From the NCBI GenBank assembly GCA_965227065.1, contig CBDDFN010000003.1:30303-94302 (forward strand): a DNA stretch of 64,000 bases, in the 5' to 3' direction. The notes under the pieces are model-generated. The model saw only the letters and a program-made list of their open reading frames with translations. It was not told where the DNA came from and did no database searches. This document shows positions 3,008 through 58,416 of the stretch, piece by piece. Position numbers and translations under genes: made by a program. This DNA comes from Alphaproteobacteria bacterium (lineage in GTDB: Bacteria; Pseudomonadota; Alphaproteobacteria; SPJN01). How positions within the stretch are numbered: position 1 is the first letter of the stretch; every line of letters starts with the position of its first letter.

Positions 3008-4288
<1,281 letters not shown>

Positions 4289-50945: not shown

Positions 50946-50987
50946 GCCGCCTTTAAATCGGCACGATTTGGGCTTATATAGCGAGGT

Positions 50988-51331
50988 GCCGGAGCAATCC
51001 GGCTATGGCGATAAACGGGATTCGTAATAAACGGATCGGACCCGGGGGCAGTACCCGGCGCCTCCACCAAATTCGGTTCCCGGCCTTCCTGCTCCCGCCA
51101 CACGGCGCCGGCAGGACGGCCGGACCAGCATGGGGGCGAAATAGGCTCGACGAACGTCTAAAGGCTTCCTTTTCGCTCGGTATGGTCCCGCCGATATCGG
51201 ACCATTACATAGTTGCAAATGACAACGATGTGCAGGCTGTCGCTGCGTAAGCAGTTCAGCCTAACCTAAACTCCTAGGCCTTCACACGCCTAGGCGGGGT
51301 TCGGAGGGCACCTGGCAACAGAAGCCCTCCA
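50988..51331 (+). ncRNA. ssrA: Two-piece (circularly permuted) tmRNA
   Basis: T-arm/acceptor GACCCGGGGGCAGTACCCGGCGCCTCCACCA ends 51069; intervening hairpin; coding piece starts GGGGGCGAAATAGG at 51132; tag ANDNDVQAVAA* at 51215-51250. Confidence 0.95.
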
Positions 51332-51367
51332 CTCTTTCGGCCCGCTGTCCGCGACGAGCGTGAAGGA

Positions 51368-52288: not shown

Positions 52289-53014
52289 ATGACAGATCAG
52301 ACACAACAGACCCGCGTGCTGGTGGTCGATGATGACGCAGAAATCCGCGATCTTCTGGGCCGCTATCTCGCCACGCACGGCTTTGAGGTCAGTCTCGCCG
52401 CCAGCGCCGGCGAAGCTGAACAGATGTTATCGGGCGCCCCTGAGCTGGTCGTGCTTGATGTCATGATGCCCGGCGAAACCGGAACCGACTTTTTAAGCCG
52501 CTTGCGCGCGCAAAAAAACTCGGTGCCGGTGATCTTGCTGACCGCCATGGCCGAAGATACAGACCGGATCGTCGGCCTCGAACTGGGCGCCGATGATTAT
52601 GTCACCAAGCCGTTTAACCCCCGCGAACTGGTGGCGCGCATCAAGACGGTGCTGCGCCGGGCCGATTCCCAAAACCAGCCCGCCGCGCCATCGGGTGATG
52701 GGTACCGCTTTGCCGATTTTGAAGTCATCCCCGAACGCCGCACCGTGACCCGCGCGGGCGAGGCGCTTGAGTTGACAAGCGGCGAGTATGAACTGTTGCT
52801 GTGCTTCATCACCCATCCGGGCCGGGTGTTGAGCCGCGATTTTCTGATGGATCACACGCGCGGCCGCGACGCCGATCCGCTTGACCGCACAATCGATGTT
52901 GCGCTCAGCCGGCTGCGCCGCAAGATCGAAGCCGATCCAGCCCATCCTGAGTTGATCAAGACCGTGCGCGGCGGCGGGTATGTGCTGTCGGCCAAGGTGG
53001 ACCGCACCTCATGA
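52289..53014 (+). CDS. OmpR-family response regulator
   Basis: VVDDD, VLDVMMPG, GADDYVTKPF, winged helix RTIDVALSRLRRK. Confidence 0.96.
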   Translation: MTDQTQQTRVLVVDDDAEIRDLLGRYLATHGFEVSLAASAGEAEQMLSGAPELVVLDVMMPGETGTDFLSRLRAQKNSVPVILLTAMAEDTDRIVGLELGADDYVTKPFNPRELVARIKTVLRRADSQNQPAAPSGDGYRFADFEVIPERRTVTRAGEALELTSGEYELLLCFITHPGRVLSRDFLMDHTRGRDADPLDRTIDVALSRLRRKIEADPAHPELIKTVRGGGYVLSAKVDRTS

Positions 53015-54339
53015 GTTGGCATCGCCCCCATGATGCAACGATGACGGTCAAGATCGCCATGACGCTGATCGGGGTCATGCTGCTGGTTGCGGGCGGAGCG
53101 GTGTACTACATCGTCAAAGTGACCGGCGAACAGTCGAGCCAGGAGTTTGACCGCCGCCTGAAAAGCCAGCTCACCGCCATTTTAACCCTGATGGACGAAA
53201 CCCCTGCGGCAGACCGGGCGCGCCTGTTGCCAGCCCTCAACACGCCCTTGTTTTCGGTTGATCTGCAAGACACGCCACGCGGCTTTGTTCCCCCCAGAGG
53301 GGAAGCCCGCCGCGTGCTGACTGAAATGACCGACAATATTCTGTCGCCGCTCAAGTCGCGCACCGTGCGCGTCCATGTGCCGGACTGGGATGAAAGCCGC
53401 TCACCGGTGGCAGACACGCGCATTGCCGTGGCGCTGAAAGACGGTGGATGGCTGGTCTTTGGCATCCCCTCCTACATCACCCACACAATCTGGAAGACCG
53501 GCGAGGTTTTGACCGCTGTGCTGTGGGTCATTGTCTTTATTGTTCTGGTTATCTTTATCGCCAAGCGCCTGTCGCGGCCCTTGCGCCGCTTCACCGAGGC
53601 GGCTGAGCGGCTCGGCACCGATCTTGATGCCCCGCCCATGTCCGAGCATGGCGGCCCTGAACTCAAGCGGGCCGCGCGCGCCTTCAACCAGATGCAAACC
53701 CGCCTGCAACGCTATCTCGAAGACCGCACCTTGATGCTGGCCGCGATCAGCCATGATCTGCGCTCCTACCTCACGCGGCTTCGGCTGCGAATCGAGTTTC
53801 TCGAAGGCGAAGAACGCGACAAGGCTGCGCGCGATGTTGAAGATATGGAGCGGATCTTGAACGACACGCTTGATTTTGCGCGCGACGATGCCGCCAAGGA
53901 AGAGCGGGACAGCATTGATCTGGCTGCGTTTGCCAAAGACAGGACAGGCCGCTTTGCTGATGCGGGCGCCGATGTCACCTTCACCGGCGGCCCGGCCCTT
54001 ACCCTGGTGGCACGGCCGGTTGCCATTGCCCGCGCACTCGACAATCTGATTGAAAATGCGGTGCATCACGCCGGGTCGGCCCGCATCTCGATTGAAGCGG
54101 CCCATGACATGGCCGCGCTGGTGGTGCGGGACCCCGGCCCCGGTATCCCCCAGGAGGAATGGGAGGCGGTGTTCCGCCCCTTCTACCGGCTTAATTCGGC
54201 GCGCACACTGGGCACCGGCGGGTCGGGCCTGGGGCTGGCGATTGCGCGATCAACCGCGCGCAGTCATGGCGGTGACGTCCGGTTTGTCCAAGACGGCCAA
54301 GGCTTTGGCGTCAGGCTCGAATTGCCGGTCAAAAAGTAA
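53011..54339 (+). CDS. HAMP sensor histidine kinase
   Basis: Two TMs; AAISHDLRS, DNLIENAVHH, DPGPGIP, GGSGLGLAI. Confidence 0.96.
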   Translation: MSWHRPHDATMTVKIAMTLIGVMLLVAGGAVYYIVKVTGEQSSQEFDRRLKSQLTAILTLMDETPAADRARLLPALNTPLFSVDLQDTPRGFVPPRGEARRVLTEMTDNILSPLKSRTVRVHVPDWDESRSPVADTRIAVALKDGGWLVFGIPSYITHTIWKTGEVLTAVLWVIVFIVLVIFIAKRLSRPLRRFTEAAERLGTDLDAPPMSEHGGPELKRAARAFNQMQTRLQRYLEDRTLMLAAISHDLRSYLTRLRLRIEFLEGEERDKAARDVEDMERILNDTLDFARDDAAKEERDSIDLAAFAKDRTGRFADAGADVTFTGGPALTLVARPVAIARALDNLIENAVHHAGSARISIEAAHDMAALVVRDPGPGIPQEEWEAVFRPFYRLNSARTLGTGGSGLGLAIARSTARSHGGDVRFVQDGQGFGVRLELPVKK

Positions 54340-54342
54340 GTA

Positions 54343-54948
54343 TCAGGGAAGTTTGGGGCGCCGGTTGAGGCCAAGCGGGGCCTTTCCCGGATCAGGCGCG
54401 CCTGCCCGGTCGATCCCGGTTGGCCGCATACCCATACCCATTCCGTTCGAACCATCCTGGGCGGCAAATTCAGATCGCAGCTCGCGATAGGCCGCCCGGT
54501 TGCCCGATGCATGGACACCAAGCAGAACCTGATTGTTACGGACACCGCGCACATAAGGCAGGGCGCGGGCAGCCGACAGGCCCGCCCGGCGGTCAGAACT
54601 GACTGCCGCCGATGAAATCAGGGCCGCGCGGCTTGGCGCAACATTGGCCGCAGCAACAGCTATGGCCGGGATCTGGCCGCGATTGGCGCGCATGATCTGT
54701 TCAAGGGCGTGTTCGGCATCGCCATCGCTTTCACGCCGCATGGCCGACCGGATACGATTGGCGGTCACAGGATCAAGGCGTTCTTCACCACTGCCGGGAA
54801 GCCGGACGATCATTGATCCATCGGCACCATAGCGGACATCACCAGCGGCTTGCGCGCTGTCGGCGCTAAGCGCCAGCGCTGAAGGCAGGCCAACACCGCC
54901 CGCAAGGGCCAGTGCAAAACCAAGCGCGCCGATGCGCAACGCCTTCAT
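54343..54948 (-). CDS. Exported hypothetical protein
   Basis: Ala/Gly-rich signal peptide from MKALRIG. Confidence 0.6.
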   Translation of the reverse strand: MKALRIGALGFALALAGGVGLPSALALSADSAQAAGDVRYGADGSMIVRLPGSGEERLDPVTANRIRSAMRRESDGDAEHALEQIMRANRGQIPAIAVAAANVAPSRAALISSAAVSSDRRAGLSAARALPYVRGVRNNQVLLGVHASGNRAAYRELRSEFAAQDGSNGMGMGMRPTGIDRAGAPDPGKAPLGLNRRPKLP

Positions 54949-55143
54949 TGCCCGTGTGTGTGTCCTGAAGATCACCGAATCCTCTTTCGCCAATTTTTGA
55001 GCCCACACTCAACTTTCCGTTTCCCGAATCTAGCGGTGGGCCTCTTGCTTGCCTAGAAGCTAGGGGCCGATTGTGGCTGAAACGCGGCGTGAACAGCACG
55101 GCTTTGCGGCATTTTGGTCACAGATTTGGCCGGAATTGGCGAA

Positions 55144-56877
55144 TTAACCAAGCTGGCGGCTGCCTGCGCCACGCTGGGAGCGCTGCTGCGCGCGATGGGC
55201 AAATCGGCCCGCATGAATCAATTGCCACTCCTCAGCGTCGAGAGACAGAACACGTCCGGCCACACAATCGGCAAACAGCTGGCCAAGCAGCGGCGCAGTC
55301 ACAAATCCGCGGGCGCCAAGCCCGGTTACGCGCCAGCGCGTGCCGTCTTCATCGACCGGCCCCAGCGCGGGGAGCCGGTCGGGCAAGGTGACCCGTACGC
55401 CCGCCCAGCGGCCTTCAACCTGAACGCCTTCCGCTCCCAGCCTTTCAGCAGCCGTCATCAAATCGCGCTCAATCGCGTCATCCCATTCAAGCGCTGAATG
55501 ACCATCATGGGGCGTGAAGCTTGCGCCCACCATGGCGCGTCCCTCTGCCATCGGCACCACAAACTCCCCAGCCACCAGGGGGCGACCAGGCAAGTTCTGC
55601 GCCGAAATTTCAATCGTCTGTCCCGCACGATAGCTGACCGGCCAGGCATCGCCGTCGGCCTCCACCTCTGCCCCGATGGCTTCAAGGATGATCCGGGCCG
55701 GGTCAAGCTCAGACGTCACGGGTGGCGGTGTCAGCGCCTTGAGCGTGGCGCGCGGTTCAAGCCAGCCGCCGCGCGGATGATGCAAGCATGCGCCATCCCA
55801 CCGGGCATCACTGTGTTGGGCAAAGCGGGCAAAGCGGTCGTGATCACGGTCTGATTGCGGGTGCTGGTCAACGCCGATTTCCTTCAGCACCCCAAGCCCG
55901 GTCCAGTGCGCATGGGCGGTGTCGAAATAACGGCGCAACAGCCGTTCTTCGGCACCCCCGCCGACATGGACGCGCGGCATCATCAATGCGGCTACATTTC
56001 CCGATGCGCCTGCCCCCATGCCATTTTTGTCGGAAAGACTGACCGCCTGCCCCGCCTGGGCAAGCGCATGGGCCGCGCACAGGCCCGCAACCCCGCATCC
56101 GTGTACCGCGACCGGACCGCCGGGCAGCGCATCGACAAACCACCAGGGACGAGCCTGAAGCGTTGCAAGCACTCCGGTAATGCGGTGACGCTTGCCGCCA
56201 AATCCCGGTTCGCGTCTGATTTCAAATCCCGCCGCTTCCAAACCCCGCCGGACATGCCCCGCTGCGGTAAAACTGGCAAGCCGCGCGCCGGGTGCAGATT
56301 GTGCAGCCAGTGTTTCAAACAGCTCCGCGCGCCACATATCGGGATTGCGGGAGGGCGCAAAGCCATCAAGAAACCACGCCTCCACCCCGCCCGGCACCAC
56401 GGCTTTGGCAAGATCGACAGCCTCGCCCACAATCAAAGTCAGACGAACTGCACCCCCGTCGAACAAGAATTGATGCAACCCCGGCGCCAGTTGATCGGGC
56501 CAGACGGACTGGAGTTGTGCGGCATAGCCCGCCACCGCCGCGAATGGTTTATGCGACCGGGCCAGTTGCTCCGGCGTCATCGGATAGGCTTCAACCGACA
56601 CGAAGTCGAGCGTGGGCGGTGTCCCGCCCGCTTCTTTCCACGCCTGCCAGGCCAGCAGAAAGTTCAGCCCTGTGCCAAAGCCGGTTTCGCCGATGCGCGA
56701 GGGCCCGCCCGGCACCGCCCAGCGTTCGGGCAGCCCGCACCCTTCGAGAAAGACCAGTCGGCTTTCAGCCACCGGGTCGGGCGCATAATAGCTGTCTTCA
56801 AACTGTTCGGCCTTGGGCCGGCCATCGTCTGTCCAGCTGAGCTTGGGGGGCTGTCCAATTTCGGTCGGTGTTCTCAT
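55144..56877 (-). CDS. mnmC: Bifunctional tRNA mnm5s2U biosynthesis protein (methyltransferase plus FAD oxidase)
   Basis: ESRLVFLEG, IGETGFGTGLNF, WFLDGFAP..NPDMW, GCGVAG, GASGN, TGLGARG. Confidence 0.93.
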   Translation of the reverse strand: MRTPTEIGQPPKLSWTDDGRPKAEQFEDSYYAPDPVAESRLVFLEGCGLPERWAVPGGPSRIGETGFGTGLNFLLAWQAWKEAGGTPPTLDFVSVEAYPMTPEQLARSHKPFAAVAGYAAQLQSVWPDQLAPGLHQFLFDGGAVRLTLIVGEAVDLAKAVVPGGVEAWFLDGFAPSRNPDMWRAELFETLAAQSAPGARLASFTAAGHVRRGLEAAGFEIRREPGFGGKRHRITGVLATLQARPWWFVDALPGGPVAVHGCGVAGLCAAHALAQAGQAVSLSDKNGMGAGASGNVAALMMPRVHVGGGAEERLLRRYFDTAHAHWTGLGVLKEIGVDQHPQSDRDHDRFARFAQHSDARWDGACLHHPRGGWLEPRATLKALTPPPVTSELDPARIILEAIGAEVEADGDAWPVSYRAGQTIEISAQNLPGRPLVAGEFVVPMAEGRAMVGASFTPHDGHSALEWDDAIERDLMTAAERLGAEGVQVEGRWAGVRVTLPDRLPALGPVDEDGTRWRVTGLGARGFVTAPLLGQLFADCVAGRVLSLDAEEWQLIHAGRFAHRAQQRSQRGAGSRQLG

Positions 56878-56886
56878 CCCTGTCTT

Positions 56887-57654
56887 TTAGAAGGGCTCCT
56901 TATAAGGGCGCAAATCAAGATCGAGCGTCCAGGTCGTTTTGGGCTGACAATGCAGCATCCAATAGGCCGCCGCCATGTCGGCAAGATTGAGCACCCCATC
57001 CTCGCCACGCGCCTCATAAAATTCGGGGAAGCGTTCGCGCACCTTGTCGCCGCCGATAATGCCATCGACAATCACATGGGCGACATGGATGCCAAGCGGG
57101 CCGAACTCACGGGCAAAGCCATGCGCCACCGCCCGTTCGGACGCCTTGGCGGCGGCAAATCCGATAAAGGGCGGACGCGAGCGCGTGCTGGCCGTCGCGC
57201 CGGTATAGATGATGGAGCCGCCCAGATCATGATCAAGCATGTGGCGCGCGGCTTCCCGTCCGGCAACAAACCCGCCATAGGCGCACAGCCGCCACAATTT
57301 TTCGAACTGTTTGCCCTCCATTTCGAGGCTGGGGACGGCCAGATTGTTGCCGGTGTTATAAACCGTGAGCACCACAGGTTTCTTGGCCGCCGTCATCTCT
57401 TCGTAAAAAGCGCTGACCTGAGCTTCATCGGTCGAATCACAAATATGGAATTCCGCGCGTCCGCCTTCGGCCTCGATCACATCAACCAGTGTTTGCAGGC
57501 TTGCTTCGGTTCGGCCAACGGCGATTGTCTTCAGCCCTTCGGCCGCGAACTTGCGGCAGAGCGCCGCACCCAGCCCCTCCATCGGCCCAACCCCGAACAC
57601 CACGGCAAAGCGGTCAAGCTGGCCGGAATCAATCTTTCCTGCTGGTGAATTCAT
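56887..57654 (-). CDS. Short-chain dehydrogenase/reductase
   Basis: GVGPMEGLG, YNTG, TGATASTR..PPFIGFAAAK, HVAHVIVDG. Confidence 0.92.
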   Translation of the reverse strand: MNSPAGKIDSGQLDRFAVVFGVGPMEGLGAALCRKFAAEGLKTIAVGRTEASLQTLVDVIEAEGGRAEFHICDSTDEAQVSAFYEEMTAAKKPVVLTVYNTGNNLAVPSLEMEGKQFEKLWRLCAYGGFVAGREAARHMLDHDLGGSIIYTGATASTRSRPPFIGFAAAKASERAVAHGFAREFGPLGIHVAHVIVDGIIGGDKVRERFPEFYEARGEDGVLNLADMAAAYWMLHCQPKTTWTLDLDLRPYKEPF

Positions 57655-58040
57655 CGTCGTCTCCCTGTTTTGTGACGGGCATCTCGCCCCATCTAACACT
57701 TTGGTGTGACACCCCCGGGCGCGGGAGCATTTTGAAACCTCTTTGTTTTTTCGTCGCTTTTGGACTGATTCTGCACGCTCAGCGGGCCGCCTGTGAACAA
57801 GACACGCCTATAAAGCGATCAGCCGCATCCAACTCCCTGATATTTCTGAAAATATTCGCATCCATGCAGCCCAGGGGTGAATCTGGCGCTCCACACTTTC
57901 TCATCAAGGCTCACAACCCGGTCCATGACCCCCAATCCCGGTGTTGGTCCTTTGGTGTTGGTCTTGCCCACCCTTTTTGTCTGGACAGACCCCATTCTTT
58001 TAGGCATTATCCGTTTACCGAAGCAGTTGCCACTCCAATC

Positions 58041-58196
58041 GCGCTTCGGCGTCCCACCGCCAATGGGACACATGATGACCGGACGAACCACCACCACCAT
58101 GCGTCCGTCATTCTGATTTTCAGGGGAAGTGGTCGCCAACCCACCACCACCGATCCGCCGCTTCCCCTGAAACACTTCTTCAAGCAACACTTCTTC
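58041..58196 (+). ncRNA. Candidate structured sRNA: consecutive hairpins with C/A-rich loops
   Basis: cUUCGg hairpin; GTCCCA/TGGGAC (loop CCGCCAA); ATGAC-C-GGACG/CGTCCGTCAT (loop AACCACCACCACCATG); 15-bp TTTCAGGGGAAGTGG/CCGCTTCCCCTGAAA with loop containing CCACCACCAC. Confidence 0.5.
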
Positions 58197-58356
58197 CAGA
58201 AACAGTCTCTGCAACACGAGATTTTCTCCATCAGAATCATTCAGGTCACAACAGTGTCTAGACCGGTCTGTCTATTGAAGCACAGTTGGACGCCCCCGTC
58301 ATGTCAAAGCGCATGAAACGGCAACCCGGTGTCTGTGACTGGCGTGCTTGCCGGCA

Positions 58357-58416
58357 CTTGCTCTACCTGTTTGCAAGCACGCGCTTGCTCTACCTGTTTG
58401 CAAGCACGCGCTTGCT
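58357..58416. repeat. Tandem 27-bp duplication (2.2 copies) spanning the DUF3604 stop codon
   Basis: CTTGCTCTACCTGTTTGCAAGCACGCG at 58357-58383 and 58384-58410, then CTTGCT. Confidence 0.95.

Follow-up and report, generated by a model that had tools for sequence, protein, structure and literature searches.

The intergenic region and its neighbouring genes

The 64-kb stretch of alphaproteobacterial DNA analysed here (referred to throughout, at its full length, as the window) contains a 735-bp gap at positions 57655-58389, flanked by the start codon of a minus-strand SDR-family oxidoreductase gene (56887-57654; ATG at 57654; Pfam adh_short) and the stop codon of a minus-strand gene encoding a DUF3604 protein (58390-60675; Pfam DUF3604), boundaries which had been given in a preliminary description of this DNA and which match the sequence. 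A third minus-strand gene, mnmC (55144-56877; Pfam Methyltransf_30 and DAO), lies directly after the SDR gene. The putative plus-strand RNA described below is divergent from the SDR gene and convergent with the DUF3604 gene. Measured in 200-nt windows the GC content of the gap is 51-56%, slightly under that of the flanks, and not down to 42% as had been claimed.

Adjoining mnmC, positions 52289-55008 of the window encode an OmpR-type response regulator, a HAMP histidine kinase and a secreted protein of ~216 amino acids with no Pfam domain, all of which are kept beside mnmC in the relatives reaching far enough (L003/L004, L005/L006, L007 and L050). A two-piece (permuted) tmRNA gene of the alphaproteobacterial type (alpha_tmRNA, 283.6 bits) is located at 50948-51333 on the plus strand and shows the host to be an alphaproteobacterium. 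At the opposite end of the gap, a 27-bp tandem duplication (TGC..GCTCTACCTGTT; 58345-58409, two copies, 81% identical) overlaps the DUF3604 stop codon (~58390), so that the C-terminus of the DUF3604 ORF is extended or altered, and a 10-nt inverted repeat, GCGTGCTTGC/GCAAGCACGC, occurs three times (58342-51, 58373-82 and 58400-09). The stretch of ~200 nt from the 3′ end of the RNA to the DUF3604 stop (58186-58389) is without counterpart in close relatives, where L003 has 58 nt and L005 has 30 nt; it looks like a window-specific insertion or duplication, and the second copy of a direct repeat, AACACTTCTTC, falls within it.

Identification of homologous loci

Seven further loci from metagenomes or MAGs, with SDR proteins ~59-84% identical to the window's, were found to carry the element in the corresponding chromosomal location. 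L001, from a MAG labelled Alphaproteobacteria, was recovered by scanning a genome collection with the SDR protein and was the sole true relative there, its DUF3604 homologue being 61% identical to the window's protein. L003/L004, L005/L006, L007, L047 and L048 are contigs encoding the closest SDR homologues (84, 78, 60 and about 59% identity), and L041 was obtained from a scan of metagenomes with the DNA pattern TGGAGTGGCAAC-N0-1-GCTNCGGT, taken from the invariant loop described below. The scan returned 39 loci, of which only L041 was homologous, most of the remaining matches falling within a conserved protein-coding gene, which the flanking sequence suggests is trpB. Four unrelated metagenome contigs (L012 ~4185-4225, L027 ~1055-1095, L028 ~625-665 and L035 ~660-700) have ATTCGTTGCCAC-TGGAGTGGCAACGCTACGGT in common, an inverted repeat (GTTGCCAC/GTGGCAAC) that is a chance pick-up of the pattern scan with no relation to the RNA element and could represent a repeat or the end of a mobile element. 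The contig L050 derives from a near-identical strain and its RNA sequence is identical across the part covered (up to the hairpin 4 loop).

The related loci share the gene order DUF3604, element, SDR, mnmC, ~216-aa protein and two-component system, with local variations. L007 carries a fadB-like gene in place of DUF3604, an additional opposite-strand gene is found in L001 and L041, and the SDR gene of L041 (2028-2640) has decayed to a C-terminal remnant just upstream of mnmC (ELDLRPYKETF followed by a stop), with the RNA element intact. A parD/parE toxin-antitoxin pair is present between SDR and mnmC in one relative only (L003 4809-5362, equivalent to L004 1557-2110).

A profile HMM detected a single copy at each of 8 related loci (E 1e-22 to 1e-34) and a 32-nt fragment at the end of the L047 contig (E = 1e-4), with no further copy elsewhere in the window. 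The element is absent from the loci of SDR homologues at 54-56% identity, which are more distant and have other gene neighbours (L051 from Methyloferula, L052 and a JGI contig), a BLAST search of the element against plasmids gave no match, and a full-text literature search for the loop sequence returned unrelated primers only. Identity in the list of mnmC homologues falls from 63% to 36%, indicating that the host clade is isolated.

A conserved array of four hairpins

On the plus strand, region 58014-58183 folds into four adjacent hairpins with an MFE of -61.4 kcal/mol and a z-score of -6.18 relative to dinucleotide shuffles; the minus strand of the same region gives a z-score of -1.99 and a diffuse ensemble. 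A hairpin array had been proposed here previously, and its loops CCGCCAA, AACCACCACCACCATG and a loop containing CCAACCCACCACCACC were all located within the fold, the plus-strand z-score ranging from -4.1 (58030-58200) to -6.2 depending on the segment folded. The corresponding small RNA is predicted to be ~165 nt in length (~58017-58181, plus strand; both ends predicted).

Hairpin 1 (58018-58049) comprises a 7-bp stem, CCGAAGC/GCTTCGG, and a loop of 18 nt that includes the invariant GUUGCCACUCCA (58026-58037). The GCTTCGG at 58043-58049 had earlier been read as a first hairpin with a cUUCGg loop, but it is the 3′ arm of this longer stem, whose 5′ arm is the CCGAAGC at 58018-58024 and which covaries in the relatives, and the array therefore begins at ~58018 rather than 58041. 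Hairpin 2 (58051-58069) has the stem GTCCCA/TGGGAC and the loop CCGCCAA, while hairpin 3 (58072-58114) has a conserved base, ATGATGA/TCATTCT, bearing an extension, CCGGACG...CGTCCG, with the loop AACCACCACCACCATG (58086-58101). Following a linker that is A/U-rich in most members, hairpin 4 (58118-58172) ends the array as a terminator-like inverted repeat with a 15-bp GC-rich stem and a 25-nt loop, TCGCCAACCCACCACCACCGATCCG. A direct repeat, AACACTTCTTC(A/C)AG, is present in two copies at 58171-58200, the first constituting the 3′ tail of the predicted RNA and the second a window-specific duplication; L003 and L005 contain a single copy of AACACTTCTTC. This repeat (58171, 58186) and the repeat GGTGTTGGTC further upstream (57940, 57954) are exact, as had been described. 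The suggestion that their GTGTT and AACAC motifs pair to close the array is not borne out, given that the predicted promoter starts only after the GGTGTTGG repeats and the second AACACTTCTTC copy exists only in the window.

To assess the structure across the family we utilized an alignment of seven full-length members (A5), aligned hairpin by hairpin and hand-fitted to the structure, with N padding to hold the register in MAFFT. Four adjacent hairpins are present in all seven, and 93.7% of the 252 cells of the four-helix structure are standard pairs (7 distinct sequences). Pairing-preserving changes on both sides were found at 23 of the 36 stem pairs in these seven hand-fitted sequences, and the covariation score of 0.508, compared with 0.228 ± 0.028 in shuffles, was reached by none of 500 shuffled alignments. 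When the pairing was slid by 1-3 columns as a control the paired fraction was 34-47%. RNAalifold recovered the same four helices from A5 (33 pairs, 21 of them compensatory), and from an unguided MAFFT alignment it recovered hairpin 1, hairpin 4 and a portion of hairpin 2.

The clearest case is hairpin 2, where each of the six pairs shows changes in both arms and pairing extends to 100% of cells in the seven sequences, the stems being GUCCCA/UGGGAC, ACCCCA/UGGGGU, ACCCCG/CGGGGU, GCUUGG/CCAAGC, GUUCCG/CGGAAC, GUCCGG/CCGGAC and GCCCCG/CGGGGU. The stem of hairpin 1 covaries (CCGGAGC/GCTCCGG and TCGAGGC/GCCTCGG), with AU replaced by GC at two positions and a U·G pair in L048, and hairpin 4 has both-side changes at 10 of its 15 pairs. 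The base stem of hairpin 3 is common to the window, L001, L048, L007 and L041, and four sequences retain a G·U pair within it; L001 and L048 have only a short hairpin 3 stem, CCGAUGAUG/CAUCGUUGG, and the extension with its AACCACCACCACCAUG loop occurs only in the window, L003 and L005.

The 12-mer GUUGCCACUCCA of the hairpin 1 loop is identical at all eight loci and is the most conserved piece of the element, and CCAACCCACC is present in the hairpin 4 loop of six full-length members, the seventh, L007, having UUCCCUCCUACACCCA instead. These are the loops conserved family-wide. A '(CCA)n loop code' had been put forward as the feature of the array, and CCACCACCACC does have just two occurrences in the whole 64 kb, both within these hairpin loops; but the CCACCACCACC loop of hairpin 3 and the extra CCACCA in hairpin 4 are restricted to the window, L003 and L005, so the (CCA)n loops are a lineage-specific elaboration and not a family signature. 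Among these same three loci the block comprising promoter and RNA has a nucleotide identity of 83.5-88.1%, compared with 74-79% for the SDR gene, 75-77% for DUF3604, 65-68% for mnmC and 14-58% for the remainder of the gap.

Coding potential of the region

Open reading frames cross the element on both strands. A minus-strand frame of 132 amino acids (57819-58217), antisense to the RNA, is uninterrupted in the window, L003 and L005, and annotation pipelines called genes there in L003 (196 aa) and L006 (164 aa), which would be the case if the gap held a small protein-coding gene. However the homologous frame contains stops within the conserved core in L001, L048, L007 and L041, indels are not multiples of three, with loop lengths varying by 1-3 nt between members, and no Pfam domain matches. 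The differences between close relatives fall at compensatory stem positions and alter amino acids of the 132-aa frame, following stem pairing and not codon positions. Coding selection on this ORF had been named beforehand as the result that would count against an RNA; with its core interrupted in four relatives the ORF is judged spurious, the coding explanation is effectively refuted and the RNA reading stands. An 828-nt open frame on the plus strand (275 aa, 57489-58316) spans the whole element and runs into the start of the opposite-strand SDR gene; it too was rejected as a gene, having no Pfam match and a frame broken in relatives, and is a by-product of C-rich, stop-poor sequence. When all frames on both strands are considered, those of the plus strand are also interrupted in some members, and because every frame through the element has stops in some relative the element is not coding, in agreement with the initial impression that no ORF in the gap is convincing. 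The hairpin array is a real, conserved, structured non-coding element.

Probable strand, with a predicted promoter and 3′ end

Four indications moderately favour transcription of the plus strand, the orientation originally proposed: base-pair composition, folding, a promoter-like sequence and U-runs. The consensus helices include 14 G·U cells and 5 A·C cells when read on the plus strand, a modest margin of roughly 9 versus 3 independent events, and since a G·U pair corresponds to a C·A mismatch on the opposite strand this excess favours the plus strand. Plus-strand z-scores for the window, L007 and L048 are -6.2, -8.1 and -6.1, against -2.0, -4.5 and -2.2 on the minus strand, and the ensembles of all three are better defined on the plus strand.

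A promoter-like pair, TGGACA-N17-CATTAT, was found by consensus scan at 57982-58010 on the plus strand, with a predicted start near 58017. The scan calls a plus-strand pair in the window only, and hexamers conforming to T(G/T/A)GAC(A/C)-N17-CAWWWW hold their position at all eight loci (variants TGGACA/CATAGT, TGGACA/CATAAA, TTGACC/CAATTT and TAGACA/CAATAT), separated by a 17-nt spacer that is constant in length and variable in sequence. At the other end of the element, hairpin 4 is followed on the plus strand by U-runs in three relatives, L007 (ATATTTTTTTG; AUAUUUUUUUG), L041 (TTTTTCTTTG; UUUUUCUUUG) and L048 (TATTTTTCTA; UAUUUUUCU); the window has just CACTTCTTC and its clade CACUUCUUC, without a U-run. 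A consensus terminator scan called hairpin 4 in no locus, because its loop of 14-25 nt exceeds the 8-nt limit of the scan.

The same observations bear on a reading of the element as a structured 5′ leader or intercistronic element of the minus strand which would be transcribed together with the SDR-mnmC mRNA and control or stabilise it, the G-rich loops GGUGGUGGUGG and AUGGAGUGGCAAC of the element being its functional face. In every case the element sits upstream of SDR or mnmC with an unchanged relative orientation, a minus-strand promoter-like pair, GTGGCA-N16-GATAAT (equivalently TGGCAA-N17), overlaps it, its near-symmetrical helices can form on either strand, and in L041 the pairing of hairpin 3 is slightly better on the minus strand. 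Such a leader would nevertheless have a poorly defined fold weakly above shuffles (z = -2.0 and -2.2), would leave unaccounted for both the preponderance of G·U over A·C cells (14 to 5) and U-runs that follow hairpin 4 on the plus strand only, and would be separated from SDR by about 90 to 360 nt of unconserved sequence. Read-through from upstream is stopped in L007 by a strong terminator, and in both L001 and L041 an opposite-strand gene blocks it; L041 also retains the element despite the decay of its SDR gene, which disfavours a role as an SDR leader. On balance we consider a minus-strand leader unlikely.

A cis-acting leader or attenuator of a downstream gene on the plus strand was also considered, given that an enoyl-CoA hydratase gene starts ~95 nt past hairpin 4 in L001 and a gene of 260 amino acids starts ~75 nt past it, on the same strand, in L041. 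These two genes are unrelated to each other however, and the next gene is convergent in the window, L003, L005 and L007, which lack a same-strand gene after the element. A search for a riboswitch or cis-leader arrangement likewise found no consistent same-strand downstream gene among the loci, plus-strand genes being unrelated or absent, and a leader or attenuator of this kind is highly improbable.

Candidate regulator half-sites at the divergent units

Two copies of GGTGTTGGTC (57940-57963) lie ~20 nt upstream of the -35 hexamer and are candidate half-sites for a regulator. Half-sites of the same type form a palindrome, AACAC-TTTG-GTGTG, at 57695-57708, 41-54 nt upstream of the SDR start codon, and this AACAC-N4-GTGTG arrangement is kept in L003 and L005. 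The hexamer GTGTTG/CAACAC is enriched within the gap in six of seven loci (P 6e-5 to 1e-2), with a GGTGTTG(G) half-site always ~20 nt upstream of the -35. Its partner half-site forms a direct repeat in the window clade and an inverted repeat in L001, L047 and L048, and L007 has one perfect palindrome, CAACACTTAAGTGTTG, between the two divergent units. The presence of half-sites before both the RNA promoter and SDR suggests that one DNA-binding regulator may act on both units through a shared operator; the OmpR-type response regulator is the only transcription factor conserved nearby.

The enrichment of half-sites around the element, together with the fact that its stems are inverted repeats in the DNA as well, would also be expected if the element acted as DNA, either as a palindromic array for protein binding or as a recombination or replication structure. 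Against this, the four stems differ from one another and covary, it is the loops and not the arms that are conserved in sequence, G·U-compatible changes are tolerated, and the element is single-copy and syntenic without sign of mobility. As conserved loops with covarying arms are the typical pattern of an RNA, a function at the RNA level is favoured and we regard action as DNA as a very slim prospect.

Comparison with known RNAs

No Rfam 15 covariance model matched the window at gathering thresholds, and a search of the region and six homologous loci at E ≤ 10 returned noise only, which agrees with the novelty initially claimed for the element. The cuckoo, CcsR (RSs0680) and alpha-r14 (NfeR1) RNAs consist of 2-4 adjacent hairpins in which every loop displays CCUCCUCCC, the stems being variable and the loops conserved, and their C-rich loops are thought to pair with ribosome-binding sites (PMC4615179). 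The element described here resembles them in its alphaproteobacterial origin, its adjacent hairpins (four, with no multiloops) and its C-rich loops, but its four loops are unlike one another and none contains CCUCCUCCC. CCTCCTCCC is absent from all seven sequences, a lone CCTCC being present in hairpin 4 of L007 only. Moreover cuckoo RNAs occur as several copies in different neighbourhoods of one genome, whereas the present element is single-copy and strictly syntenic. The earlier proposal that it shares the architecture of cuckoo/CcsR thus holds for the layout of several hairpins with C-rich loops and not for membership, since without the CCUCCUCCC motif and with the covariance models unmatched it is not a cuckoo/CcsR RNA; at most it may work like one.

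Similar parallels and differences apply to other RNAs. For C-rich loops in general, repression of translation through pairing with the RBS has been proposed (PMC4615179). Staphylococcus aureus RNAIII also exposes C-rich motifs (UCCC) in loops and has its last hairpin at the 3′ end, but it is unrelated in sequence and host lineage, and the seed GUUGCCACUCCA found here is partly anti-Shine-Dalgarno (CUCC). Small RNAs of the CsrB/RsmY type titrate a protein by means of several hairpins with short repeated loop motifs, and decoys for CsrA-type proteins display GGA motifs. The window clade likewise has several hairpins with repeated loop motifs, in its case CCACC and CCA repeats, but these CCA loops are not conserved in the family and the locus lacks a linked candidate binding protein.

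Proposed function of the RNA

A new, structured, non-coding RNA of the plus strand is the best reading of the element, as had been proposed, and is supported by covariation, conservation above that of the neighbouring genes, broken reading frames, the strand indications and the lack of an Rfam match. Most likely it is an undescribed sRNA of ~165 nt representing a new family restricted to a small uncultured clade of Alphaproteobacteria. Support for this picture is graded, being strong for the structure and moderate for the strand and ends, and the function is suggested by analogy, the target pairing and the titration of a protein put forward earlier being speculative.

Our best explanation, to which we attach a reasonable though far from complete degree of confidence, is a plus-strand sRNA that is transcribed independently from its own promoter and would most likely act by base pairing. 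The non-coding RNA (about 58017-58181) would be transcribed from the sigma-70-type promoter TGGACA-N17-CATTAT, facing away from SDR-mnmC; hairpins 1 and 4 would expose the C-rich single-stranded loops GUUGCCACUCCA and CCAACCCACC, and hairpin 4 would double as the 3′-terminal, terminator-like stem. The C-rich loops could then pair in trans with G-rich sites of distant mRNAs, such as ribosome-binding regions containing GGAG(UGG), and through the GTGTTG/CAACAC half-sites one regulator might control both divergent units. As in base-pairing sRNAs generally, there are conserved single-stranded seeds, GUUGCCACUCCA at eight loci and CCAACCCACC in all but one of the full-length members, and trans-acting pairing is most likely in that it would be the most economical reading of the layout.

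A hybridisation scan using the loops only identified no consistent target, either at the starts of genes adjoining the element in five loci or at 63 crude gene starts within the window; being limited to 64 kb of genome such a scan is a weak test. The only complementarity to recur, a weak one, was between the hairpin 4 loop and the start of the gene for the ~216-aa secreted protein (window 54343-55008), with p values of 0.07-0.41 per locus. Full-length RNA-RNA duplex prediction against the neighbouring starts was discarded, the duplexes being meaninglessly long.

The loops also display NCCA motifs similar to the 3′ end of tRNA. The invariant loop of hairpin 1 has GCCA and UCCA, and hairpin 4 has ACCA and CCCA, expanded to (ACC)n-A in the window clade. 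An RNA of this kind could conceivably serve as a decoy and not as an ordinary anti-RBS regulator, titrating a factor that binds CCA or C-rich sequence and being co-regulated with mnmC via the GTGTTG operator, although we regard this as improbable. If true, it would link tRNA 3′-end or modification status to a dedicated sRNA.

As new sRNAs with C-rich loops turn up regularly, the base-pairing sRNA favoured here does not overturn current views. If expressed, it would nonetheless constitute a new and well-supported sRNA family in a poorly studied, uncultured branch of the Alphaproteobacteria. It would also offer an example of modular sRNA evolution, in which one clade has enlarged hairpin 3 and given it a (CCA)n loop whereas the seed of hairpin 1 has remained frozen, and the sRNA together with the divergent SDR-mnmC genes, with their common GTGTTG operator half-sites, may represent a candidate regulatory unit.
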